DNA of 63,279 nt, counting the filler, from Asterionella formosa (Eukaryota), in NCBI GenBank assembly GCA_002256025.1. It is 14 parts of 14 records of this genome, joined end to end, with 100 filler letters (N's around TTAATTAATTAA, not from the genome) between each part and the next. Parts side by side here need not be neighbours in the genome. Positions count along the whole stretch, not along the records: positions 33,198 to 55,827 come from NKIB01002668.1; 13 more parts are not named here. One strand, written 5' to 3'. A program made the position numbers and the translations under genes. This document shows, one piece after another, positions 43,224 through 63,279 of the stretch. How positions within the stretch are numbered: the first letter of the stretch is position 1; each line of letters starts with the position of its first letter. The notes under the pieces are model-generated. The model worked only from the letters and a program-made list of their open reading frames with translations. It searched no databases and was not told the DNA's origin.

Positions 43224-44627
43224 ATGCCTCGATTCACCTCGCTTGCTCTCTTGGCAGTCCTCGGCAGTTCTGCCGCATTTGCCCCAATCGCTCCACCTCG
43301 CGCTGCTGCATTTGCGTTGCAAGCGGCGTCCACGACTGCGCCTTCTCCACTGGCTCCCCTAACACAATGGGGACAAGCCATGGACGACGTCGTTACTAGA
43401 CAAGCCGAATTCAGGTCGCAGCCTGCTCCCGATTTCGCCCCTGAAATTAGTGCCAAGGCCCTTGGGTTGACGACCAAAGAAGCGCAGTTGAAGTACTTTC
43501 AAGACAATGCCATGGAAATAAAAATGAAGATGCAAGAGGGCAGTGCTGTTATTTTTAGAGACTTTGACTTGATGAAAGAACAAGATGGATTTGTGCAAAT
43601 GTACCAAGCGTTGGGAATGAAGACATGTTTGGATCCCTTGCACTCTGTTTCGGCTCGTCCTACTGTGGACGGCACCAAGAATTCACCGGTGTACGAAGCC
43701 GTCAACAAGGAATCAAGAAAGAATTTTTTCATTGGTACGTACGTGGCGATCCTGATCCCCTGTAGCAGCTACTGAATGGAGATACTATATTTTCCAACTT
43801 TTTATCGCTGATCTTCCCACTTTTTATTTCCCTCATTCACAATAGGCATGCACAATGAATTTGTCGGAACCCGCGCTCCCCGTGCTGCTGCATTTGTTTG
43901 TTTCAAGGCCGCCGAGGAAGGTGGTGAATTCTTGATTGCTGATGGACGCAAAATCTTTCGTGACTTGAGCCCAGAGTTGGTCAAGGAGCTGTACGAACGG
44001 GGCATTCGCTACTCTGTTATGGAACTTCCCTTTTTTGGGTTTGTTGACACCTTGCCGGAGTTTTTGCAAGGGCCTATCATGGGAGCCATCAAGGGAGCTG
44101 CCACCTTTGCTATCAATTCCAAGGTGGATTTTGATGTGGAACTTCAATGGGGCCAGGGTGGGTATGATAATGTACGCATGTTGCAAGCTAGAGCGCCTAG
44201 TCAGCCTCCAATTGTCTTGCACCCAGTGACAGGAGAACCGACATGGTTCTGTAACGTTCATTCCCATTCTAGTAAATTGCGACATGCCAGAGAAGAAATT
44301 TACGGCGCTGAACGATTCGAGGATGGAGCATCCCAGATCAATAAGAGTGACATGTTCTTTGGGGATGATGGTGATATTTCGGAAGCTGCGCTCAAGGAGA
44401 TGGATGAAGTGACCTTGAAGAATGTGAGGTATGTCAAGATGCAGGAAGGTGACGTTGTTCTACTGGACAACTACAAGTGCTTGCATGGGCGGAATGTTTT
44501 TGATGGCACTCGTAAACATGGAGTTGCATGGTTTGAAGGCTGGGAAGGGGAAGAAGAAATGAAGAAAATCTTGCAAACTCGTTCATCAATCAACGCCAAA
44601 ACCCCCTTCTTTGTGACCAAGCAATGA
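43224..44627 (+). CDS. Plastid-targeted TauD/TfdA (clavaminate synthase/SyrP-like) 2OG-Fe(II) dioxygenase; intron 43735-43845
   Basis: Presequence MPRFTSLALLAVLGSSAA-FAP. Motifs GMHNE, GGEFLIADGR, HPVTGEPTWFCN and GDVVLLDNYKCLHGR. Confidence 0.9.
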
Positions 44628-45538
44628 ACAAAACCAATATTTTCTCATAAGTACTGAGGAAGTATGTTTTTTTAGGTAGCATGGCGGTGAATATCCTAGG
44701 GAGGAAGACTAAAGTATTTGCGTATTGAATTAGTTGATATACATACATACATGTAGCTACTTAAAATTTGCCAGGTGTGACCCCCATGAAAGCAAGCAAC
44801 AGGAAAAAGGGATGTGATCCAGTTTTCTAGACTGCCTTTCATGTGCAATACATGATATATGTGATTCCTGTTTCGTAATTCTCCATGACATGATCACAAG
44901 TTCTGTCTCACCTTAACTATACTTGGTTCTAGTTTTTGTACAGTATTGAATAGATAAATTTACCGTTCCTGCCCATCTACATATGAACTACTAGAATGAA
45001 CTTGATGGTTTCAGACCCTCCTCCAATTCAAAAATTATTGCCTAATAACCAAATGGTACAAACTGGATTCAGTTGCCAGGGAAGTTACAATGCCTTTTGC
45101 TCTTCAGATAGAAATGAATAGTAACATTATTTTGTACAACTGGAATTGATTTCTGCGGAGAAGCACAAAACCCAGCAAAAGCAATGGAATTAGTACATGA
45201 ATGGGGCTACCGGTATGTTAAATGAGTGATTACCATTAGAGTGTATTTGAAGTGTACAGATACTGGTAGAAAGTGAGAGTAGAGCGGGAACACGAGACAA
45301 GTGTTGTTCACAGACAAACAGACAGAGCGATGAGTCAACATCATGATACGACAGTGATTCATAACAAAAAACCGTCATTTACCACAACTTCCTCTTTCGT
45401 AAGACGAAGTACAAAATATTAGCCAACAGCAACCCTTTACCGGTACATGTATGTGTGTCAACTTATTGGCACTTTTGCTGAAACCTTCACATCCCCACAT
45501 CAGCCATTGAGTTGCATCGAAGGAGCAACACCAGCATC

Positions 45539-47380
45539 ATGAACGCAATACGCAAGACAGTTCAAACGACCCTCTTCCGGTCCAACTCCAAGTTGAAGGA
45601 CGAAGGACCGATTGCGAATCCGTTAGATTCAGACATTTTGCTCGGCCGTTCCAAGGCCAGCTGGAGCCACACTGGGAACCGCAAATTCCGCGCGTTTGTC
45701 GGCCTTCACCTCAAGCGCTACATGGAGTGCACCTCTCGCCTTGAAAAGACCATGGTAGTCAACATTGTTGCCGAGAGCGTCCAAGAAGCAGGAGGCCGCT
45801 TTTTGAAAGTTGGCAAAGACGGGCACTGGTACACTGTCACACAGAAGGAGGTGCGAGAAAAGGTGGCCCACGCCCTTCGAGATGCCGTATGTTTGCGTGT
45901 CAAACTATCGTCGACGGAAGTTCCTGTGGCGTTAAAATCAGACGTCAAGCCCAGCCAGCGGAGAGTCAGCAATATTGTCATGGAGCGCCGACGATCGTCT
46001 GTGCTTGTTCTGGGTGCTACTAGTCATAATAATCCATCGGAAACTAGCGGTGGACAACCTTGGGCGGAGGCCTTGGCAGAAATGCAAGACTTTCCAACGT
46101 ACATGAGGAGCAAGTCCTGCAGTAATCTAGAATGTGAACAGGAACTTGTTACAGGTGTAAGACCCGTGATGCAACCGACTATTCGCATGGCAAGCCTCCA
46201 AGAGGCTCCAGCGCCGCAAAGGTCTTTGCTCAAGAACGACAATTTTGATTCTGGTGAGTTCTCATTAATGAGCATTGCGACTGTCAATCAAGAGATGTTT
46301 GACAATGATGTCGGCGCTCCTGGCTATGCGACGGTCGCATCCAAGAAACCGAACATGTTCGAGAGTATCAAATCAGAACTATCTCATGACCCTAACATGA
46401 ATTGCATGATCAAGCAAGTCAGTGATCGTATCAAGATGAAAGTTTCGAAAGATTTCTTGGCAACCACGAATTCTAGCAAACCGTCTAACTCTGGAACTTC
46501 AGGTCCATGTTCACCTGGATCGAAAATTGAACTCAGGCTCTCAGTTGCCGATGTTGACATTTCGGAGGAGTTTTCGGTGATGAGTATCTCGGATTTTAAA
46601 AAGGCATCCATCGAGGGGACGAACCGTCGAAAAGAACTAGTACCATCGGCCAGGCGCTTTCCGCTAAATGGTGTTGAAATAAAACCCAAGGCCGGATGGG
46701 AAAATGAAATTTCGGAAGAATTTTCGTCGCGGGGATTTTCAACCCTTTCAATTGGATCCGTGAGCGTCAATGGCTCGTCAGCATCAGGTACAGATGCAGA
46801 AGAAACCTTTCGTTTAACGGACAGTCGAAGCTCCGATGATGTGCCCACTCGCCATCAGAAGGCATCCTCAATGACTTTTGCCATTAATGATTATGCGTCG
46901 GCAAGTCGAAATCCTTCGTTCACGATAATTGATGTGAATGAGGTGGCCAAGGTACTTCAAGATGAGCCATTGGCATCCGCTGACAAGGCTGACAGGAATC
47001 TGTCATCCACGTCGTTGCAAATGTCGGACTTTTTGAATGTCGTGGACTTTTCAGAAGAATCTGTCCACTCTGCAATACAGGCAAGCACTCATCCTTCAGT
47101 TTCCCTAAGAGGAAGTGGCCGAAAGAAATTGATTTCACTATTGTCGGATGTTGGAGAAGAAGAATACTATGAGTTAGATGCCTCAAAATCTAGCAATTTT
47201 TCGGCAAATCTACAGGAGTGCAACAGCTTAAATGAGGAATGGCAAAATGTTAGAAAGAAGCCAAGTACTGAAACTGAAGCATCCGAAGCTTCTAGCGTAG
47301 ACACCGAGATAGAATGGAACCTGACATTGAATGCCTTGGCAAGGTCAGAATGTTTCGACCAACCTGCAGGAGCGCAATAG
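45539..47380 (+). CDS. Diatom-expanded DUF6824-like domain protein with a long Ser-rich disordered tail
   Basis: The N-terminal domain reads DILLGR...HTGNRKFR...GGRFLK...W...REKVAHALRD. Confidence 0.8.
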   Translation: MNAIRKTVQTTLFRSNSKLKDEGPIANPLDSDILLGRSKASWSHTGNRKFRAFVGLHLKRYMECTSRLEKTMVVNIVAESVQEAGGRFLKVGKDGHWYTVTQKEVREKVAHALRDAVCLRVKLSSTEVPVALKSDVKPSQRRVSNIVMERRRSSVLVLGATSHNNPSETSGGQPWAEALAEMQDFPTYMRSKSCSNLECEQELVTGVRPVMQPTIRMASLQEAPAPQRSLLKNDNFDSGEFSLMSIATVNQEMFDNDVGAPGYATVASKKPNMFESIKSELSHDPNMNCMIKQVSDRIKMKVSKDFLATTNSSKPSNSGTSGPCSPGSKIELRLSVADVDISEEFSVMSISDFKKASIEGTNRRKELVPSARRFPLNGVEIKPKAGWENEISEEFSSRGFSTLSIGSVSVNGSSASGTDAEETFRLTDSRSSDDVPTRHQKASSMTFAINDYASASRNPSFTIIDVNEVAKVLQDEPLASADKADRNLSSTSLQMSDFLNVVDFSEESVHSAIQASTHPSVSLRGSGRKKLISLLSDVGEEEYYELDASKSSNFSANLQECNSLNEEWQNVRKKPSTETEASEASSVDTEIEWNLTLNALARSECFDQPAGAQ

Positions 47381-47642: not shown

Positions 47643-49612
47643 TAGACAAAGTAAATTCGTGGAAAACATATATCATTGCTAAAATGGATGCTTTCAAAGC
47701 TTAATGTACCTTTGACTTGCAATTTACTAATATCGAAAGGTATGTATAAGATGATGTGATTATTTTGTGGTGGGCATTTTCGAAGTATTAGTACTAGTTG
47801 GAAATACATAACTTTGTGATTTGGACGCAAATGACTTTTTTAAATTTCTTCTATTGTTTATGGTGGGGCATATGATTCCTCCTGGGGTTTCAGCATAATA
47901 AGCTGAATATCTGAAAATGCAGCAGGCTTTACTGGACAAATCAATTCTGACCATTATATGTATGAAGTATAGTGTTTTACAGCTGGCTGTCACCAGCACC
48001 CCCCCCCCTCCCCTTGCATGCAAATATGTATCCATCCTTCCCATCTGCAACTTTTCAGCACCACAATGATCTTGATATGCACCTCCCTGGATCTGTCAGT
48101 TTGAATGTAAGTTGTAAGGAATAAGGCAACGGCACAAGTAGTTGTGTACCAAATCTCTGTTTTTCATGGGTAAGCAAGACAAAATCTGATGTGAATTCTG
48201 TCATAGACAAGGCCAAGTGATACTCAAAATGTATTGAGTTTGTGGTGTCATGACAGAATATGTGTGACCCCTGCTCTGGTAACTTCGTATAGCATTTGCA
48301 TTGTTGAAAACTGCAATTAACTGATGGAGTTGATCACTCTACATATCCTACTAAATATTGTGTTTCAACCATTCTCCACGTATCCCTATGCATGTCCAAC
48401 ATTCCTGAAATTTACTTTTCATTAATCAAGTTGCAAGTTGCAACTGAATTATGATTTGACATCAAATATTTGTTTGATATATCAATATTTTCGTCATATT
48501 GTTCAATGCTTCTATCTCCTCATGAAAAACAAACAGAACTCTTCTTTCCAAAAGTGTGGCATTACTGTTAACTTCTCATGACAACAAGAACATGATGCAC
48601 AATCATAAAGCCCTTCTTGTTCCATTCCTGAAGAAGGTCAACACCAGAAATAATCTTGAATTTTGTAAAAGAACTTGGGATTTGCAAATGAATTATCCTT
48701 TCAAGTAGAATATTACTTGAATCTCCAATGAAATTATTTGTTTCATCTAGCTATCATTGTATTGTGGTGTTCAATGTTTGGATTTGAAAGTTCACACAAC
48801 AACATCTAAATAATAACCTTGCTTCAAAAATAGTTTCATAAGTATGTTTGTGAAGTGTAAAATGGTTCAGTCCAGCCAGTTTGAACAAAAATTCAAATAA
48901 TAGCATAATACATGACTAATGTGGCAGCATGGCTGGTATGCCAGTTAGCACTACTAGAACCGATTTCTACTACTGGTATATGCACTGCTCTTTCCAAGGT
49001 TGAATGCAATGTTCATACTGTACACTGCTCGAAGAACATAATGAGACAAGAGTGACAATATTGTTGGAGTTGGACCAGGCCGGTAGCCTACCGGTACACC
49101 GTACTATATGTGCTGTCGCAAATACCAGGAAATAGAAAGATGCCGCCTAATTCCAAACCGAGAAAGGAAATGCATGTCACACTTCTGCCGATGTGAAAAA
49201 TCTAAGAAGGAATCGAATCAGCTGGCTGATGAACGAATCTCAATATATATTGTGCTGTATATGGATATTTACATACTGTCGGTAAGTTCAGGTGCTCTGT
49301 AAAACGCATCAGGTTCTGATTCCCACGTAAACAATGACATCATTTTTTCTCATCGTCTTGACTTTTCTCCTACGACATTGAGTGCTGTGCGCAGTTAGTA
49401 TGTACATAAACAATTTTCCTATTAAACTTAAACTACCGTATTACAAACCGGTAATTATATACCTAAATATCATTATTCTAAATAATATTTATTTTATGTG
49501 TCGTATAGCCCCAAGTCCTCCTTGACAAAAATCTTCCGACTCAATCTTACGTCGCTCAATCATCATAGTTCCTTTTTTTTTTCTCGCTTTCGCTGTATTC
49601 TTTGTGTCAAGA

Positions 49613-51928
49613 ATGGCACCGCCTTTAACTCCTTCGTGGCAGTCCAATCAGCTACTCGTCCCTTCGATAGTACTTGGCTTGTCATGCGGAGTCGGCTACT
49701 TTATCGCCCACTCTGGATCCAAGCGCGTCTCGTGGGAAAAGACGTCCAGAGTCCTTGCGCGAGAGATTGTTAATCCCACGATTCCCTGGTGGCTCTTGTT
49801 GTTTGGGCAACGCGCTGTCTTCCCACTCACTGCCTGGTGGATATGGAATCAGATGGGAGAAGATGATGCAGGAGGGACTTATGGAAAGGATCCTGATTTA
49901 ACCACTCCAGGGCCGCCGAAAGATGCAACTCCCAAAAGTCGCAACGTCAAAATGGCCGTCGACGGAAGAAGCGCCTCACAGATGGACACGGTCAAAACGA
50001 AGAACTCGACTGGTGAATCTCGACCAGTGCCAAATATGGATCTTTCGGTTCTGGAACAAATTGTTGTGCCGCCTGACTTGACGAAGAAGTCATCGACTGA
50101 GCCTCAGAGATATTTGGAGATGCTCGTTCACAATGTATCGCACAAAGACCTGGTGTTGAGCTTGGACGCTAGGGACAATGGTGAGTATTGCCTGTGTCGG
50201 CCTAGATTCTCAGCCTTTGATTTGTACTCCAGACGAATCCTGGCAGCGATACCAGATAATCCTGAAATTGTTTCATTTAGTCGGTACGAACGATCGGACG
50301 CTACACCTAGGTATTCCATTGTCACCCCAAGACCAAGTCGACAGAAGAAAATTCCAGCTGGTCTCAAACTGCCTTTTGAAGACCAGCGATTGCATATTCC
50401 TTGCAACGAACTCGTTAATTTACGGGTGAGAGGCCGAGATGCTCCTCGTATCGAACGAGATGCTACCGCCACATCATCAAGGCTTCAGATCGATCATGTC
50501 TTCTTCCCCCTGCTGGCCACTCTACTGCCTCGATGGAATCAACAAATGAATCAAAAATACGCGACCTCGACGCCTGATGTCAAAAAAGTTTTGATTCTGG
50601 TCTCTGGCGTAGGAACACCCCGAAATTGGACTCACTCCATTTCCGGAAATTCAACGGAAGCGTGTGCCCAGCTCATGGAGAAATTCATTCAACTCCTACA
50701 CCCCGAAATTACTATTGTCTTGATTCATTCTCAAACAAATCTCTTTAGGTACGACGAGAACATCTTATTTGCCAAGCACGAGCTAGTGCCGCAGATTGAT
50801 GCCTACAGAGATGCTCATGCCAAAAACCTACCATACCCAGATGAAATAGATCGATCGAATCTTTCATTTGAAGTGTACGAAGATTGGCCTTTTAGTCCAG
50901 ACTGGAAGCAGTCCTTTCATATTACCTTGAGTTTTGCTGACGGAACGCCTGCTCGTACACATGCCATTCAAACGTCATTGCGACCCTACAGGCCAGACTT
51001 TTTGCACTTTTGGCAGCTCCAGACCTTTTGGCACGACACAAAAATTGTGGACGATGACATTGAAATGCATTCTTTTGAAGATATGGAGACTGTTCCTGCT
51101 ATGGATTGTTCTGATGTGCTCGACGACGAGACCAAGTCTGTAATTGTAGAAATGAATGCATTTCGACAAGAGTTCTTGGAATTGCTAGAAGGACGGAATG
51201 ATGTACGTCAATTTTGGTTACGGAAAACCAATAAGCCTGTTCTGGCTGTACTGTTGGTCCAGCCGCCAAATAAGCCAGCCATCCTGTATCGTGGAACTAA
51301 TATGGAAGTTAGTATGCCCACGGGGAGTTTGTGTGCCGAGCGCAATGTGATTGGAACTGCGTTGGCTAGCAATCCTGGTCTGAAACGAGAAGATTTGCGA
51401 ATGGTTGCAGTATTGGCTGTGCCACTACCGGACCCTGAGGAGCTGATATCAAGGCCTACCAATATCAGTCGGAATATGAGTTTTGCAAGCTATTCGAGCG
51501 TAGTGAATAACGAGGACGAAGAATGGATAATTGGTGAAAATGACGAAGAATGCACGACGGAGCGACTCGCCAATGTGGTTACAGTCCAGAAATCACCTCC
51601 AGTGTATCCATCACTTGGCCAACAAGTTCCGGCCTTTCACTTGCCGGTTCCAGCAAGTGTTGAACCAACTCCTCCTGGAACTCCAATTCGGCGTATCCAC
51701 TTATATCCACAAGCACGGGAGACAACATCCAAACCAATCATGGGTGGAAGTCGTAAACAAAAGCGCACAGTTTTGGTCCATTCTGCAAAGGATCTAAATC
51801 CACTGAAACCCTGCGGTGCTTGCAATGAGTGGCTCAAGAAGATTGCCGAGTCCAATCCCTACTTTAAGGTTGTGACTTTCACAGACGCGGGATGCTCTGG
51901 AGTCTATGTGTGTCCTTGCCAAGCGTAG
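49613..51928 (+). CDS. Large cytidine-deaminase-domain protein with N-terminal hydrophobic segments and an unassigned alpha/beta (CARF-like) middle domain
   Basis: Zn-deaminase motifs RGTNMEVSMPTGSLCAERNVIG and PCGACNEWL in an uninterrupted 771-aa ORF. The middle-domain assignment is inference. Confidence 0.85.
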   Translation: MAPPLTPSWQSNQLLVPSIVLGLSCGVGYFIAHSGSKRVSWEKTSRVLAREIVNPTIPWWLLLFGQRAVFPLTAWWIWNQMGEDDAGGTYGKDPDLTTPGPPKDATPKSRNVKMAVDGRSASQMDTVKTKNSTGESRPVPNMDLSVLEQIVVPPDLTKKSSTEPQRYLEMLVHNVSHKDLVLSLDARDNGEYCLCRPRFSAFDLYSRRILAAIPDNPEIVSFSRYERSDATPRYSIVTPRPSRQKKIPAGLKLPFEDQRLHIPCNELVNLRVRGRDAPRIERDATATSSRLQIDHVFFPLLATLLPRWNQQMNQKYATSTPDVKKVLILVSGVGTPRNWTHSISGNSTEACAQLMEKFIQLLHPEITIVLIHSQTNLFRYDENILFAKHELVPQIDAYRDAHAKNLPYPDEIDRSNLSFEVYEDWPFSPDWKQSFHITLSFADGTPARTHAIQTSLRPYRPDFLHFWQLQTFWHDTKIVDDDIEMHSFEDMETVPAMDCSDVLDDETKSVIVEMNAFRQEFLELLEGRNDVRQFWLRKTNKPVLAVLLVQPPNKPAILYRGTNMEVSMPTGSLCAERNVIGTALASNPGLKREDLRMVAVLAVPLPDPEELISRPTNISRNMSFASYSSVVNNEDEEWIIGENDEECTTERLANVVTVQKSPPVYPSLGQQVPAFHLPVPASVEPTPPGTPIRRIHLYPQARETTSKPIMGGSRKQKRTVLVHSAKDLNPLKPCGACNEWLKKIAESNPYFKVVTFTDAGCSGVYVCPCQA

Positions 51929-52574
51929 AACTGTAGACTTGCTGAACATAATAGATATGGTAGATCAATAAAATGGTATTATATTTTAATTATCCCAAGC
52001 CATAGTTCTGCACTAGACTCGTGACTGAATAGCTATCCCGGTATTCTTTTTTAAAACTTATATTGATAGTAATAAATATTTAAGTAAGAAAATAAGAACA
52101 CAGACAAATACACTTGCTAGTGTCATTTTGTGTTGAACAGAACAAATGTATATAGGCCCAGCCTCACTTGTGAAAGCGCAGACCCTAGCATCTCCACATC
52201 AAGGAATTGACGTTTCTGTCAGAATTGACGTGGTCCTTCTGACTAAAGGACCAATGGCAACGACCAATGGTTTATTTTATTGTATATTAGCCTATGATGG
52301 TCTACCGGTAGTGAGGAACCTATGGCAACCTGATGTCGCAGTAAGAAAGTATCTTTACGAAAGTGAAGGAATCATCGCTCTTTCAAATCAGCCATACATT
52401 GAAAAATTACATGATTAATTTCTCACAAATCTACACAACTTGCCAAATGCACTTCCTTATTTCCTTATTTCGAATGCAAACAGTACATTGTTTTGCTTCC
52501 AAGAAGAATGTGCTGAACTTCTGCGCCAGTCTGGTGCACTAATTGATGAAAGGATACATCGTTCTCGTACCAAC

Positions 52575-55927: not shown

Positions 55928-57073
55928 TGTCTGTAGGAACTAATCAGCTTACTGGCCCAATTCCATTGGAGCTTGGACAGTTGACCAACATCATAGGATT
56001 GTCATTGCTTGATAACAAGTTAACAGGAACACTTCCAACAGAAATTGGCCAATTAACTAACCTTGCTTTTTTTTCGTTAGCGAGTAACTTTTTGAAGGGA
56101 ACACTTCCTACTGAGATTGGATTCTTGACAAGTCTAATAACATTGCATCTACTTGATAATCAGTTGACTGATGTACTTCCAACAGAAATTGGCAATTTGA
56201 AAAATGTTGTAAATTTTGATGCAAGCTTAAACCTTTTCAATGGAAAATTTCCTACAGAGTTTGGATTCTTGACAAAACTAACATTATTGTATTTATATGA
56301 TAATCAATTGACTGGTGCAATTCCGACAGAAATGGGCAAATTAACAAGCTTAATGGGATTTTACGCCTACAGCAACCATTTCAATGGCACCCTTCCTACA
56401 GAGATTGGACTCTTGACAAGTCTGACCGGCTTATCTCTTTTGGCTAATAATTTGACTGGCACTATGCCTACAGAGATTGGACTCTTGACAAGTCTAACCA
56501 GCTTATCTCTTTTTGCAAATAATTTGACTGGCACTATGCCTACAGAGGTTGCATTCTTGACAAGCCTAACATTATTGTATCTATTTGATAATCAGTTGAC
56601 TGGTTCTTTTCCGACAGAAATTGGCAATTTGACAAGCCTCATAGAATTTGGAGCTTCCAGTAACTATTTCAATGGAACACTTCCTACAGAGATTGGATTC
56701 TTGACAAGACTAACGTTATTGTATCTACAATTTAATCAGTTGTCTGGTGTACTTCCGGCAGAAATTGGCAATTTGACAATTCTCAATGATTTTGAGATTC
56801 ATTCCAATATGTTTACTGGTTTAATTCCCACCGAAATTGGTCGCATGTCTTCCTTGAGTAAGTTTTGTTTATCTGAAACTTACATCTCTTGACCATTTGT
56901 TCTAATATTTCACTTTTTTGATAGCCATTTTATCTCTCGACAATAATAATTTTGCAGGGACAGTTCCAACAGAAGCATGTAATATTGCTACAATAAAGGG
57001 CATTTATGTTTGCCCACCACTGATTTGCAACTGCAGCAGGTCATGTATCATTGACAAGACTTGTTCTGCGTAG
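55928..57073 (+). CDS. Plant-type LRR protein, 5' partial, paralogue of 24250-25518; intron 56858-56924
   Basis: Same 24-aa LRRs, a near-identical last intron, and the Cys-rich C-cap CPPLICNC. Confidence 0.9.
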
Positions 57074-57581: not shown

Positions 57582-58808
57582 TTATTCCTCCATGTTGTCG
57601 TGAAATATATAACTTTTTGTGTATACTGCTTTGCGCTCACAGTGATGATCTTTGAAGAAAGTTGCAGCTTCATTCAGGCCTTGAATGAGAGTGCAGATCA
57701 TAAAAGCCATTCGTCGGGGGACTTTCAATGTTTTGACCGTTGTCCTCGTTCCTTCAGGTGCAATTTGATAATTTTTGTTGACAATATCAGGTGAAGGCTC
57801 CATCAGCAGTTCTGCATCGCACGATATGAAATCCTTTCGCAATTTATACTTGCTGATATACCATTTCCCTAAGCTGTATCGTTGACAGTAGTGCAACACG
57901 TGAGGTAAATCCTTCTGTGGAAAGTTCTTGCAAACTCTCGTTTTTGGATTAACTGTGTCAATGGTTTGCCATCCTTCGGCGGGCACGAGGGTATCTGACA
58001 CCATGAACCCATATGCAACACGATGTGGAAGATTCAAATGAGCAGCGGCCAAACAGTATGCAAACATCTCAGCCAGCAAATGAGGATAATTGTCGTACAC
58101 CAAGGGAACGAATTCTGTCCATTTTTCTACAATGGCGTACATGTCCTTGGCTGTAGCTATATATGGAGGCCCCACTGAGTAGTGCATCCTCGCTTCGTCC
58201 ATGTCCATGCCCTCTATTCGTGATGGTTGCCCTCCGGCCACATGAGTCATATTGACTTTCGTTTTCCATTGAAGGCCAAAGCCATATTGTTGTGCAAAGG
58301 GAGACCCGTGTTCCACCTTATTTCGCATAGGAATAGAACTCGTTGGTGTTGGTCTCCAAACCTCTGAAGAATTTGTAAAATCGTTTGTAAATGGTCGCAG
58401 TAGTATCTGATCCGGGTCCACCAAAATGACAATGGCGTTGGAATTCTCGGGGTTATCAGGAAATCCCAAAACATGTTCCATCCAATGTCTCACGCCAAAT
58501 GGCTTATTAAAATATTTGAATCTCAGACCTGGTTTTACAGTTGCGAATTCGGGAGTCAAGTGAAGGTAGAAGCGGTCTGACATGATTTCAATTTGTTCCT
58601 TGTGTAGCTGCTTCATGGCTTCGGTATCCTCATCCCTACATCCTGAGGCAATTCTTGTGACTCGACCCTTTTGTCCTGATTTGAGTGCGTGGAAAAAGAA
58701 AACATACGATTGCCAGTCTTGAAACAACGAGCATCCCGTCGAAAAGATGAGGTGATATTCTTGTTCGTGATCGTCTGTACCAGGCTTGATTGTCGAGGTA
58801 ATTCGTTG
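57582..58808 (-). CDS. Peptidyl-serine galactosyltransferase / hydroxyproline arabinosyltransferase-like glycosyltransferase (SGT1/HPAT-like), 5' truncated
   Basis: Motifs IFSTGCSLFQDWQS, SGQKGRVTRIASGC, FNKPFGVRHW, LVDPD (DxD), LAEMFAYCLAAAH and LHYCQ. Confidence 0.8.
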   Translation of the reverse strand, partial: QRITSTIKPGTDDHEQEYHLIFSTGCSLFQDWQSYVFFFHALKSGQKGRVTRIASGCRDEDTEAMKQLHKEQIEIMSDRFYLHLTPEFATVKPGLRFKYFNKPFGVRHWMEHVLGFPDNPENSNAIVILVDPDQILLRPFTNDFTNSSEVWRPTPTSSIPMRNKVEHGSPFAQQYGFGLQWKTKVNMTHVAGGQPSRIEGMDMDEARMHYSVGPPYIATAKDMYAIVEKWTEFVPLVYDNYPHLLAEMFAYCLAAAHLNLPHRVAYGFMVSDTLVPAEGWQTIDTVNPKTRVCKNFPQKDLPHVLHYCQRYSLGKWYISKYKLRKDFISCDAELLMEPSPDIVNKNYQIAPEGTRTTVKTLKVPRRMAFMICTLIQGLNEAATFFKDHHCERKAVYTKSYIFHDNMEE

Positions 58809-61979: not shown

Positions 61980-63279
61980 TTACAAGCTTGATTGTGGAGG
62001 GCGACAATAAGGACACTATAGAGGGCCTGGGAGAGGGCGGCATAGGAAGGGTTGGAGGGGGAAGCTAGGTGGACATGGCGCCAGACGGGGGTGCTAAGCC
62101 GGGTTGTGAGCATGGTAAACCATTCGTTAAATTTATTGGAATCACCATTAAAATGGGGAAGGTGTGTGGAGAGCTCTTTCTTTGCATCAGCGGAAGCAAG
62201 ACTGGAGACAATCGCAGCCTGAACATCAGCCTTGGTGGCGATGGTTGAGGGGAAGCTCTCAGGATGGGTGGCCAAGACAATGGTGTAGGAGTCAGAGACA
62301 GAGAGATGAGAGCAGGGCGGCTGGAGAGGAATGGAGAGTGACAGATCCGGCGGGGAGGAGGCGGAGGGAGAGGCCAGGGGGAATAGGAAGTATCAGGGAC
62401 CAGTGGCACAGGGGCAGGAAGGGGCCGAGAAGGAAATGGGACATGAGGTTGCCGGAATAAGGACGAATAAAAGAGGGCTGGCTCGACATGGAGAGTACCA
62501 AGGGGGAGGGACAAAGAGAGTGGGCCACACCCAGGAATGGGGGCGGCATAGGCATCGACGTCCCTGGCATGATGAAGGTAAGCCTGGGCGGCCTCGGCAT
62601 AGGTGCCGAAGCCACCAACCTGGCCACGGAGGGAACCCCAATGGTAACCTGCAGTGAGGGCCCATGCGAGGGGCCAGCTGTGAAAGATGCCGCGATGGCG
62701 GCCCCGATACATGACGTAATAGCGCTTAAGGGACCGCTTGGTCGAGCGGTTGGTGCCCTGGTAATGGTGTTGTTGGAATGGGTGGGGAAAACCGTCCACC
62801 AGGGGAGGAAAACTACTGTGTGTTGGGGACTGAGAAGAGAGTTCAACTGGATGGTAGTGAGGGTGTGGGGATGGACCGGCAGGGGTGTAGAAAGCGGGAG
62901 AGCCGAAGGCGGCGGACCGGATAGGGGGTGCCGACTGAGTGAATGGAGTCATCCGGGCGAGCTCGGCCTGTAGATGGGCGATGACGGAGCTATAGGGGGT
63001 GACAGTGGACCGGTGGGACCAGGGAATCTACGGGGAGTCGGGAGGGTTGGGAGCAGACTGGCCGTTGGGGGGTGGAAATGGGGACTCATGTGTTGTTGTG
63101 GGTGATGTGCTGAATGGTGTGGCAGGGGTGGCGCAGGATGATGTAAAGATGATGCAACATACTCAGGCGACGACGTGGGAACGTAAATGGAGGGAGGATG
63201 ACCATGAGCGGCAAAGGAGTGGTGGTACAGGGCATCGCCGTGAGGAGGTGGCAGCGAATCGGGGCACCACAGTGGATCT
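61980..63279 (-). mobile_element. GC-rich gag-like retroelement fragment carrying an RNase H1 N-terminal (Cauli_VI-like) domain, frameshifted
   Basis: YYVMYRGRHRGIFHSW...LTAGY (hybrid-binding-domain pattern) sits in a Pro-rich ORF. The gag-like LPHFNGDSNKFNEWF follows in another frame. Confidence 0.6.

Follow-up and report, generated by a model that had tools for sequence, protein, structure and literature searches.

Does a diatom carry a cytidine deaminase that is switched by a sensor domain of the kind known from CRISPR effectors? The question was raised by a preliminary description of one gene of Asterionella formosa, whose product was read as a membrane-anchored deaminase with a CARF-like middle domain, possibly gated by a nucleotide signal. 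The gene lies in a window of 63,279 nucleotides, by which we mean the whole stretch of DNA analysed, joined from 14 parts of assembly GCA_002256025.1; positions below count along this window. Structure prediction and structure searches support, at the level of the fold only, a CARF-type six-stranded Rossmann-like domain in the middle of the protein, and the two features on which this statement bears are the following.

49613..51928, plus strand: whole gene, intronless, stop codon included (from translation, RNA-library contigs and homologues that align over the full length)
50108..51100, plus strand: CARF-fold Rossmann-like domain including an insert, residues 166-496 (from the structure model and the fold search)

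Predicted fold of the middle domain

Conservation within the protein starts at about residue 166 and continues to the end, with residues 1-160 being poorly conserved (query and 120 listed homologues). No Pfam family matched residues 1-508. An AlphaFold2 (AF2) model of residues 163-510, built with an alignment of 58 sequences, reached a mean predicted local distance difference test (pLDDT) score of 89.6 and a predicted template-modelling (pTM) score of 0.88; a model residue plus 162 gives the residue of the protein. When this model was compared by VIA-align, a method independent of Foldseek, with 48,161 PDB representatives, all 19 chains with a Z-score of at least 8 were CARF proteins. The first 21 rows (Z 12.2-7.9) were all CARF, and the first row outside this group was a universal stress protein with Z 7.7. 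The list was headed by Can2 (12.2), VC1899 (12.0) and Card1 (11.9), together with Csm6, Cdn1, SSO1393, Can1 and Csm6′, and further down contained Cam1 (10.4), Csa3, Sso2081, the CARF domain of Cad1 (9.7), Cami1, Csx1-Crn2, TtCsm6 and PfCsx1 (7.9); Crn1 was also among these 21. Several of the matched entries, VC1899 and SSO1393 among them, we take to be CARF proteins. A Z-score of at least 5 was reached by 340 chains.

A Foldseek search of the PDB with the same model returned nothing at E≤0.001. Its weak top rows were CARF, led by SSO1393 (E 5.3e-3) and followed by Sso2081 and Can2, and a second look at its 1000 best chains placed CARF in 48 of the 50 rows listed. The best of these was Can2 bound to cyclic tetraadenylate (cA4), with Z 13.1 and a root-mean-square deviation (rmsd) of 2.8 Å, where model residues 4..325 lie on chain residues 1..140 and 134 of the 140 CARF residues are aligned, which is essentially the whole CARF domain of Can2. 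The proposed CARF-like fold is therefore supported by the model and the structure searches, the top 21 of 48,161 representatives all being CARF. The borders have to be moved: the middle domain had been placed at about 50580-51030, and the conserved region, 50108-51100, starts about 155 residues earlier. A homodimer prediction of the domain, run without the family alignment and with the fold of the chain itself uncertain, gave a score of 0.00 and is uninformative either way. The ESM Atlas contained no usable structural look-alike of the domain, and Foldseek against viral models found no relative (best E 0.054).

Layout of the domain and its conserved residues

In model numbering, the domain consists of a strand (5-12), a mixed alpha/beta region (13-135), a helix (137-153), a strand (161-171), helices (181-200), a strand (204-214), a helix (218-241), a loop, a strand (273-279), a helix (284-293), a strand (300-304), a helix (309-313) and a last strand (321-324). 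In the passages of Makarova et al. 2014 that describe the domain core, the CARF fold is Rossmann-like and six-stranded, with strands 5 and 6 as a beta-hairpin, a conserved polar residue (S/T) at the end of strand 1 and a K/R after strand 4, often within the motif [DN]X[ST]XXX[RK]. Outside model residues 13-135, the order of strands and helices is that layout. The alignments with CARF proteins all begin at model residues 1-7, and at or before chain residue 3 where CARF is N-terminal. From the element order and these alignment starts we infer that YLEMLVHN (167-174) is strand 1 and that residues 175-297 form an insert; the strands were mapped by element order and aligned ranges, not by a residue-level superposition.

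50111..50149, plus strand: likely CARF strand 1, YLEMLVHN (residues 167-174), and the following V-S176-H177-K-D179 (model strand 5-12)
50135..50503, plus strand: residues 175-297, inserted after strand 1 and before helix 1 and containing a conserved RPRFS and several arginines (from the model)
50579..50656, plus strand: likely strand 2, VKKVLILVSGV, and the loop GTPRNWTHS..GNST, residues 323-348 (model strand 161-171)
50915..50956, plus strand: likely strand 4, FHITLSF (residues 435-441), and the following A-D443-G-T445-P-A-R448 (model strand 273-279)

Nowhere in the protein is conservation higher than in the loops at the C-terminal ends of strands 1, 2 and 4. At the end of the likely strand 1 and just behind it, H173, N174, S176, H177 and D179 are invariant or nearly invariant, which for S176, H177 and D179 also holds in the most divergent members, and S176, directly after this strand, would take the place of the polar S/T if the strand is named correctly. 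The loop after strand 2 (G-V-G-T-P-R-N-W-T-H-S-x-x-G-N-S-T) is the most conserved of all, with G332, V333, P336, R337, H341, N346, S347 and T348 invariant. The segment KKVLILVSGVGTP (residues 324-336) had been taken for the first CARF strand; by element order it is most likely strand 2, and the likely strand 1 lies at 167-174. The second motif from which the CARF likeness had been read, DGTPAR within ITLSFADGTPARTHAI (residues 437-452), would on our mapping follow strand 4, where the CARF signature sits. Here the 58 aligned sequences all have S440, G444, A447 and R448, and position 445 is S or T. Further invariant residues in strand-end loops are S373 and H465.

Modelled alone, the 123 residues of the insert gave a confident model (pLDDT 88.9), and in a comparison with the same 48,161 chains the best Z was 3.3, with none at 5 or above, so that the insert matches no known fold in this set. 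Its conserved residues are R196, P197, F199, S200, R227, G250, R271 and R273, and five of its arginines are invariant or nearly invariant.

Distribution and domain partners

A phmmer search of 1.84 billion representative sequences with the middle domain gave 545 matches at E≤0.001, and the distribution described here is that of the best 150 of them. Among the named members are Aphanomyces and Albugo, both oomycetes, as well as a chrysophyte; of 24 divergent matches that were scanned, 20 carry PF14421, the deaminase family to which the C-terminal part of the diatom protein belongs. When the Aphanomyces domain served as the query, 81 proteins were retrieved, of which 74 carry PF14421; they come from Phytophthora, Pythium, Saprolegnia, Peronospora, Ectocarpus and Phaeothamnion. 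By these sequence matches, the family is stramenopile-wide, covering diatoms, oomycetes, brown algae and chrysophytes; identity among the diatom members is 40-76%. A profile search limited to 158-592 residues gave 200 matches, and among the best 120 no Pfam family except PF14421 was found. Two partial Nothophytophthora proteins among the 81 carry ankyrin repeats and are possibly merged gene models.

About twenty metagenome proteins (P0193, P0206, P0343-P0355 and others) consist of the middle domain only. In nearly all of them the sequence stops at, or a little beyond, the conserved FWQLKSFW..V, and they look like gene models from a non-diatom lineage that were broken at a conserved intron read through by the gene callers. 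As candidates for free CARF-like proteins they were rejected on account of this shared break point at FW..V.

When prokaryote genomes were scanned using the family alignment, 49 pattern matches resulted, of which one passed tblastn. This match, 28 residues in a Prevotella metagenome-assembled genome, was rejected as chance, since it lies in no plus-strand open reading frame (ORF) of at least 60 amino acids and the genes there are on the other strand.

Evidence against CARF kinship

As a CARF family for comparison, we collected 17 Card1/Can2-type proteins from Bacteroidota by their nuclease domain PF09002, which was found in 16 of 401 genomes. Their aligned CARF halves carry the expected LVSxQxxPN and N-x-T-G-G-T-K. 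At three of the Bacteroidota loci (L005, L007 and L008), ORFs of about 360 amino acids that start with NILICV(T/S)GLTPQI adjoin the Card1/Can2-like genes and presumably represent a second CARF-type family.

Several results weigh against descent of the diatom domain from CARF, or against a CARF-like pocket. The preliminary description had proposed an HHpred search as a check, and no kinship was found at the sequence level: hhalign of the 73-sequence middle-domain profile with this one family profile of 17 CARF domains gave a probability of 0.09 and E 0.6, and removal of the insert and one loop changed these values to 0.17 and 0.35. The sole local pairing, 11 columns at a non-significant E of 0.35, sets VLILVSGVGTP on strand 1 of Card1/Can2 (LVSLVSDQTIP), at odds with its assignment to strand 2. 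Seven divergent members were scanned with Pfam and PADLOC and hit no CARF model, and the family hidden Markov model (HMM) found no solved structure among the PDB sequences. No prokaryotic relative was found among the best 150 of the 545 phmmer matches, in the profile search or in the prokaryote genome scan. Because these sequence and profile tests are negative, kinship rests on the fold and on the position of conserved residues only, and the likeness could therefore have arisen by convergence on a common Rossmann-like layout.

Details of the domain itself point in the same direction. The motif that follows strand 4, D-x-T-x-x-R, has one residue less than [DN]X[ST]XXX[RK], and one of the seven divergent members has G and E in place of D443 and R448. 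The short helix 309-313 stands between the last two strands (300-304 and 321-324), and a hairpin of strands 5 and 6 is not evident. In the model, the insert sits exactly in the loop between strand 1 and helix 1, which is the CARF ligand site, and the pocket may thus differ greatly. Finally, in the 81-protein and best-120 listings the middle domain, unlike prokaryotic CARF domains, occurred neither by itself nor joined to a different effector, and such a fixed pairing fits an integral part of one enzyme equally well as a sensor.

Gene, transcript and reading frame

The plus-strand frame is open from 49604/49613 to 51928 and, read from the ATG at 49613 to the stop codon at 51926-51928, encodes 771 amino acids. 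This ORF and every peptide quoted for it by the preliminary description were recovered in place. The protein matches 260 database proteins at E≤0.001, and the best 120 of these all contain PF14421; the names of these homologues point to a diatom-type stramenopile. Chance does not account for such an ORF, and the gene is real.

RNA-library contigs of three studies map to the ORF. A single contig of 2373 nucleotides spans 49553-51925 without gap or joint, those of the second study cover the ORF except for one base at a variant site, and those of the third cover parts of it in several short pieces with gaps. No RNA contig covers 49300-49493. This is good, but not absolute, evidence for an intronless transcript that includes the 5′ part encoding the anchor, as contigs of RNA libraries can contain DNA. 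At position 49849 the contigs of two RNA runs break and a third run has G instead of T, which is probably a strain polymorphism that split the assemblies. A public gene model (P0002, 99% identical) comprises 691 amino acids; it begins at Met81, 80 residues later, and lacks the transmembrane segment. We favour the longer frame from the ATG at 49613 because the anchor is kept in relatives with 72-76% identity and because of the RNA contigs.

The C-terminal deaminase and the N-terminal region

51137..51922, plus strand: zinc deaminase domain of the LmjF36.5940 type of CDD/CDA, residues 509-770 (PF14421 match)
51332..51340, plus strand: C574-A-E576, zinc ligand and catalytic glutamate, in the block GTNMEVSMPTGSLCAERNVIG (from sequence)
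51425..51757, plus strand: variable insert within the deaminase domain, residues ~605-715 (from the alignment)
51809..51823, plus strand: P733-C734-G-A-C737, second zinc-binding motif, with P, C, G and C nearly invariant (from sequence)
49652..49708, plus strand: N-terminal hydrophobic helix, likely membrane anchor, residues 14-32 (Kyte-Doolittle)
49787..49846, plus strand: second, weaker hydrophobic stretch, residues 59-78, WWLLLF...AWWIW (from sequence)
49847..50107, plus strand: poorly conserved and probably disordered linker, residues 79-165 (alignment conservation)

Residues 509-770 match PF14421, the LmjF365940 subfamily of CDD/CDA-like deaminases, with E 1.2e-62, at 211.9 bits where the cut-off is 27.1. 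PF00383, the model for cytidine/dCMP deaminases in general, reaches only 17.1 bits, below its cut-off of 25, and sequence searches led to no solved CDA structure. The block GTNMEVSMPTGSLCAERNVIG around the catalytic glutamate is almost invariant (column identity 0.99 over residues 561-580), and the insert between CAE and PCxxC (residues ~605-715) is variable, with column identity of 0.12-0.46 and low occupancy. Both C574-A-E576 and P733-C-G-A-C737 are present and conserved family-wide, as expected for the intact zinc deaminase proposed earlier; judged by its motifs, the deaminase is catalytically intact.

The two-domain architecture, a Rossmann-fold domain followed by the PF14421 deaminase, is already in print. 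In the sections of Iyer et al. 2011 (PMC3239186) on this clade, an LmjF36.5940-like group is defined in kinetoplastids, stramenopiles, chlorophytes and Perkinsus. Those sections place a Rossmann-fold domain N-terminal to the deaminase in the stramenopile and chlorophyte form, leave that domain uncharacterized, and propose an mRNA-editing or DNA-mutating activity from kinetoplastid fusions with CCCH zinc fingers.

Two hydrophobic stretches had been noticed near the N-terminus, and both are present. Only the first, LLVPSIVLGLSCGVGYFIA (residues 14-32), stands out in hydropathy: its 19-residue Kyte-Doolittle mean of 2.01 is the sole window above 1.4. Within residues 59-78 no 19-residue window reaches a mean of 1.4, and the column occupancy of this second stretch among the homologues is low (0.39). 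The first segment is kept in close relatives (P0003-P0006, P0010, P0016 and P0018), and a window of at least 1.6 occurs in 82 of the 168 homologues with an N-terminal extension of at least 40 amino acids. Oomycete forms have no N-terminal extension and begin at the middle domain itself; the anchor is likely a lineage-specific feature of diatoms. In the linker, the mean column identity over residues 81-160 is 0.06-0.24 in an alignment of 121 sequences.

Possible role of the CARF-fold domain

What could a CARF-type fold do in such a protein? We give an even chance to a reading in which the CARF-fold domain senses an endogenous, housekeeping-type ligand and tunes the fused deaminase, rather than responding to a CRISPR-like alarm. 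Such a ligand is to be expected from the constant pairing of the domains and the strong conservation of the protein as a whole. The protein would belong to an old stramenopile-wide family built of three parts, an N-terminal anchor, the CARF-fold domain with its insert and the zinc deaminase. The CARF-fold domain would bind a small molecule rich in phosphate (a nucleotide, or an oligonucleotide that is short or cyclic) in a pocket made up of the conserved loops behind strands 1, 2 and 4 together with arginines of the insert. Occupancy of this pocket would control the C-to-U deamination carried out by the fused domain, either as a switch or by tuning it, much as binding of cA4 or the hexaadenylate cA6 controls the adenosine deaminase of Cad1. 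Ligand binding and allostery are proposed, and the substrate could be either a free cytosine nucleoside or nucleotide or RNA/DNA.

The choice of substrate leads to a second possibility, which we regard as unlikely: an RNA- or DNA-editing deaminase whose CARF-fold domain and arginine-rich insert hold the substrate, like the CCCH zinc fingers of the kinetoplastid proteins. The five conserved arginines of the insert, the constant association of the two domains and the activity proposed for the clade in the pertinent sections of Iyer et al. 2011 (PMC3239186) would all suit such an enzyme. The insert resembles no known nucleic-acid-binding fold, however (best Z 3.3), and CARF domains are known as binders of small ligands. 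The deaminase, moreover, falls in the CDD/CDA branch by the classification in the same sections of Iyer et al. 2011, and the enzymes characterised from that branch act on free nucleosides.

The interpretation put forward in the preliminary description, an antiviral deaminase gated by a second messenger, seems to us rather improbable. A cyclic or linear oligoadenylate-like alarm made upon infection would bind the CARF-fold domain and thereby trigger, through deamination, the depletion of (deoxy)cytidine triphosphate or the mutation of viral nucleic acids. The best structural matches are indeed CRISPR effectors that bind cA4 or the corresponding tri- and hexaadenylates (cA3, cA6), the CARF domain of Cad1 included, the pocket loops are conserved and rich in arginine, and the anchor recalls the membrane-bound Cam1. 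Yet the gene behaves as a strongly conserved stramenopile orthologue, with the 40-76% identity among diatoms given above, and not as a patchy, fast-evolving defence gene. The PADLOC defence models had no match, Foldseek found no viral structural relatives, and the middle domain is not modular. To our knowledge, eukaryotes have no Cas10.

It is very unlikely that the middle domain performs no sensing at all and is itself an enzyme, such as a ring-nuclease-like phosphodiesterase, or a scaffold or oligomerisation platform. Invariant His, Asp, Ser and Arg residues do line the strand-end loops (H173, H177, D179, H341, S373 and H465), and the ring nucleases Sso2081, Sis0811 and Sis0455 match the model well (Z 10-11). 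A weak Pfam match to 2H phosphoesterases (2_5_RNA_ligase2, E 0.028), seen in two of the seven divergent middle domains, would also agree with an enzyme, but we consider it a chance match: it is far below significance, its histidine is not conserved in diatoms, and the fold is not that of 2H proteins. It was probably caused by the H-x-T-x look of strand 4 (FHITLSF, 50915-50935).

Least probable of all is that the CARF likeness reflects convergence or modelling bias in an unrelated Rossmann-like domain with a common strand order; the negative sequence and profile tests, a Foldseek E of 5e-3 at best and the abundance of Rossmann-like three-layer sandwiches (340 chains at Z of at least 5) would allow it, but the ranking is specific, with 19 of 19 matches at Z of at least 8 being CARF from many families, 134 of 140 Can2 CARF residues align at 2.8 Å, and conserved residues occupy the two CARF signature positions.

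Novelty and implications

The fusion of a CARF domain with a deaminase (Cad1) and the protein family itself are already known. What is new, as far as checked, is that the Rossmann domain is assigned to the CARF fold, that it carries an insert matching no known fold, and that the setting is eukaryotic. In the literature searched, which did not include the CARF classification of Makarova et al. 2020, we found no published eukaryotic CARF domain, nor any study of the PF14421 Rossmann-deaminase family beyond Iyer et al. 2011. The relevant passages of Makarova et al. 2014 state that CARF domains in eukaryotes are not detectable by sequence searches, and the 2025 CRISPR classification, in the portions at hand, is confined to prokaryotes.

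The strongest version of the proposal, that stramenopiles keep a true descendant of a prokaryotic CARF domain, the first in eukaryotes, which gates a cytidine deaminase by an oligonucleotide second messenger, appears improbable to us. If it held, a signalling pathway of the cyclic-oligoadenylate type would be implied in diatoms, oomycetes and brown algae. A confidently modelled CARF-fold domain that is kept throughout a major eukaryotic group and fused to a deaminase would in itself reopen the question of CARF in eukaryotes, and the result gives the "uncharacterized Rossmann-fold domain" of the deaminase clade a fold. If the domain is regulatory, the protein would parallel Cad1 in eukaryotes and be a candidate for a cytosine deaminase that a ligand can switch; should the resemblance go no further than the fold, it would be an ordinary but unstudied stramenopile enzyme.

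Other features of the window

43848-44627, plus strand: ORF of a TauD-like dioxygenase (E 2e-20)
45512-47380, plus strand: ORF of 622 amino acids with DUF6824 (PF20710, E 2.8e-22)
55966-56892, plus strand: ORF of a leucine-rich-repeat protein
57582-58727, minus strand: weak hydroxyproline O-arabinosyltransferase-like match (E 3.9e-6)
62065-62952, minus strand: weak match to the RNase H1 N-terminal domain (Cauli_VI, E 5.5e-4)

Just downstream of the deaminase gene, at 52141, begins a contig from an RNA library whose word depth is very high (~1043); the deaminase gene has a word depth of 22.6 in the same RNA run. The region from this point (52141-52200 and downstream) contains only short ORFs, of 90 and 132 amino acids.

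Comparison with known systems

The closest known system is the family itself. The LmjF36.5940-like deaminases (PF14421) have the same Rossmann and deaminase architecture and the same CAE and PCxxC motifs. Compared with the account in the clade sections of Iyer et al. 2011 (PMC3239186), the present analysis assigns a CARF fold to the Rossmann domain, delimits its large insert and notes the diatom-specific anchor.

Among the CRISPR effectors, Cad1 (CAAD), of type III systems, likewise has an N-terminal CARF-type domain fused to a C-terminal deaminase, and its CARF domain aligns with the model over 137-138 residues (Z 9.7-9.8, rmsd 2.9). However, the effector of Cad1 is a TIM-barrel adenosine deaminase that acts on ATP, whereas that of the diatom protein is a CDA-type zinc deaminase (PF14421). 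Cad1 is also prokaryotic and linked to Cas10, whereas the diatom protein is eukaryotic and apparently anchored, carries the 123-residue insert in its CARF-type domain and has no sequence similarity to Cad1. The best structural matches are Can2, Card1 and VC1899, in which CARF is combined with a PD-(D/E)xK nuclease (Z 12-13.1, 131-134 residues, the whole CARF domain). Their effector differs, the profile comparison with 17 members (E 0.35-0.6) detected no kinship, and the motif after strand 4 reads N-x-T-G-G-T-K in Can2 compared with D-G-T-P-A-R in the diatom protein. Cam1 resembles the diatom protein in having an N-terminal transmembrane segment followed by a CARF-type domain (Z 10.4, rmsd 2.4, 115 residues); it lacks an enzymatic effector, whereas the diatom protein has its deaminase and an anchor that is not conserved outside diatoms.

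The housekeeping cytidine and dCMP deaminases (PF00383), in turn, have the zinc-deaminase fold and the catalytic motifs in common with the diatom protein. They lack the CARF-fold domain, and their model stays below its cut-off here. Allosteric control by nucleotides is itself a familiar property of dCMP deaminases.

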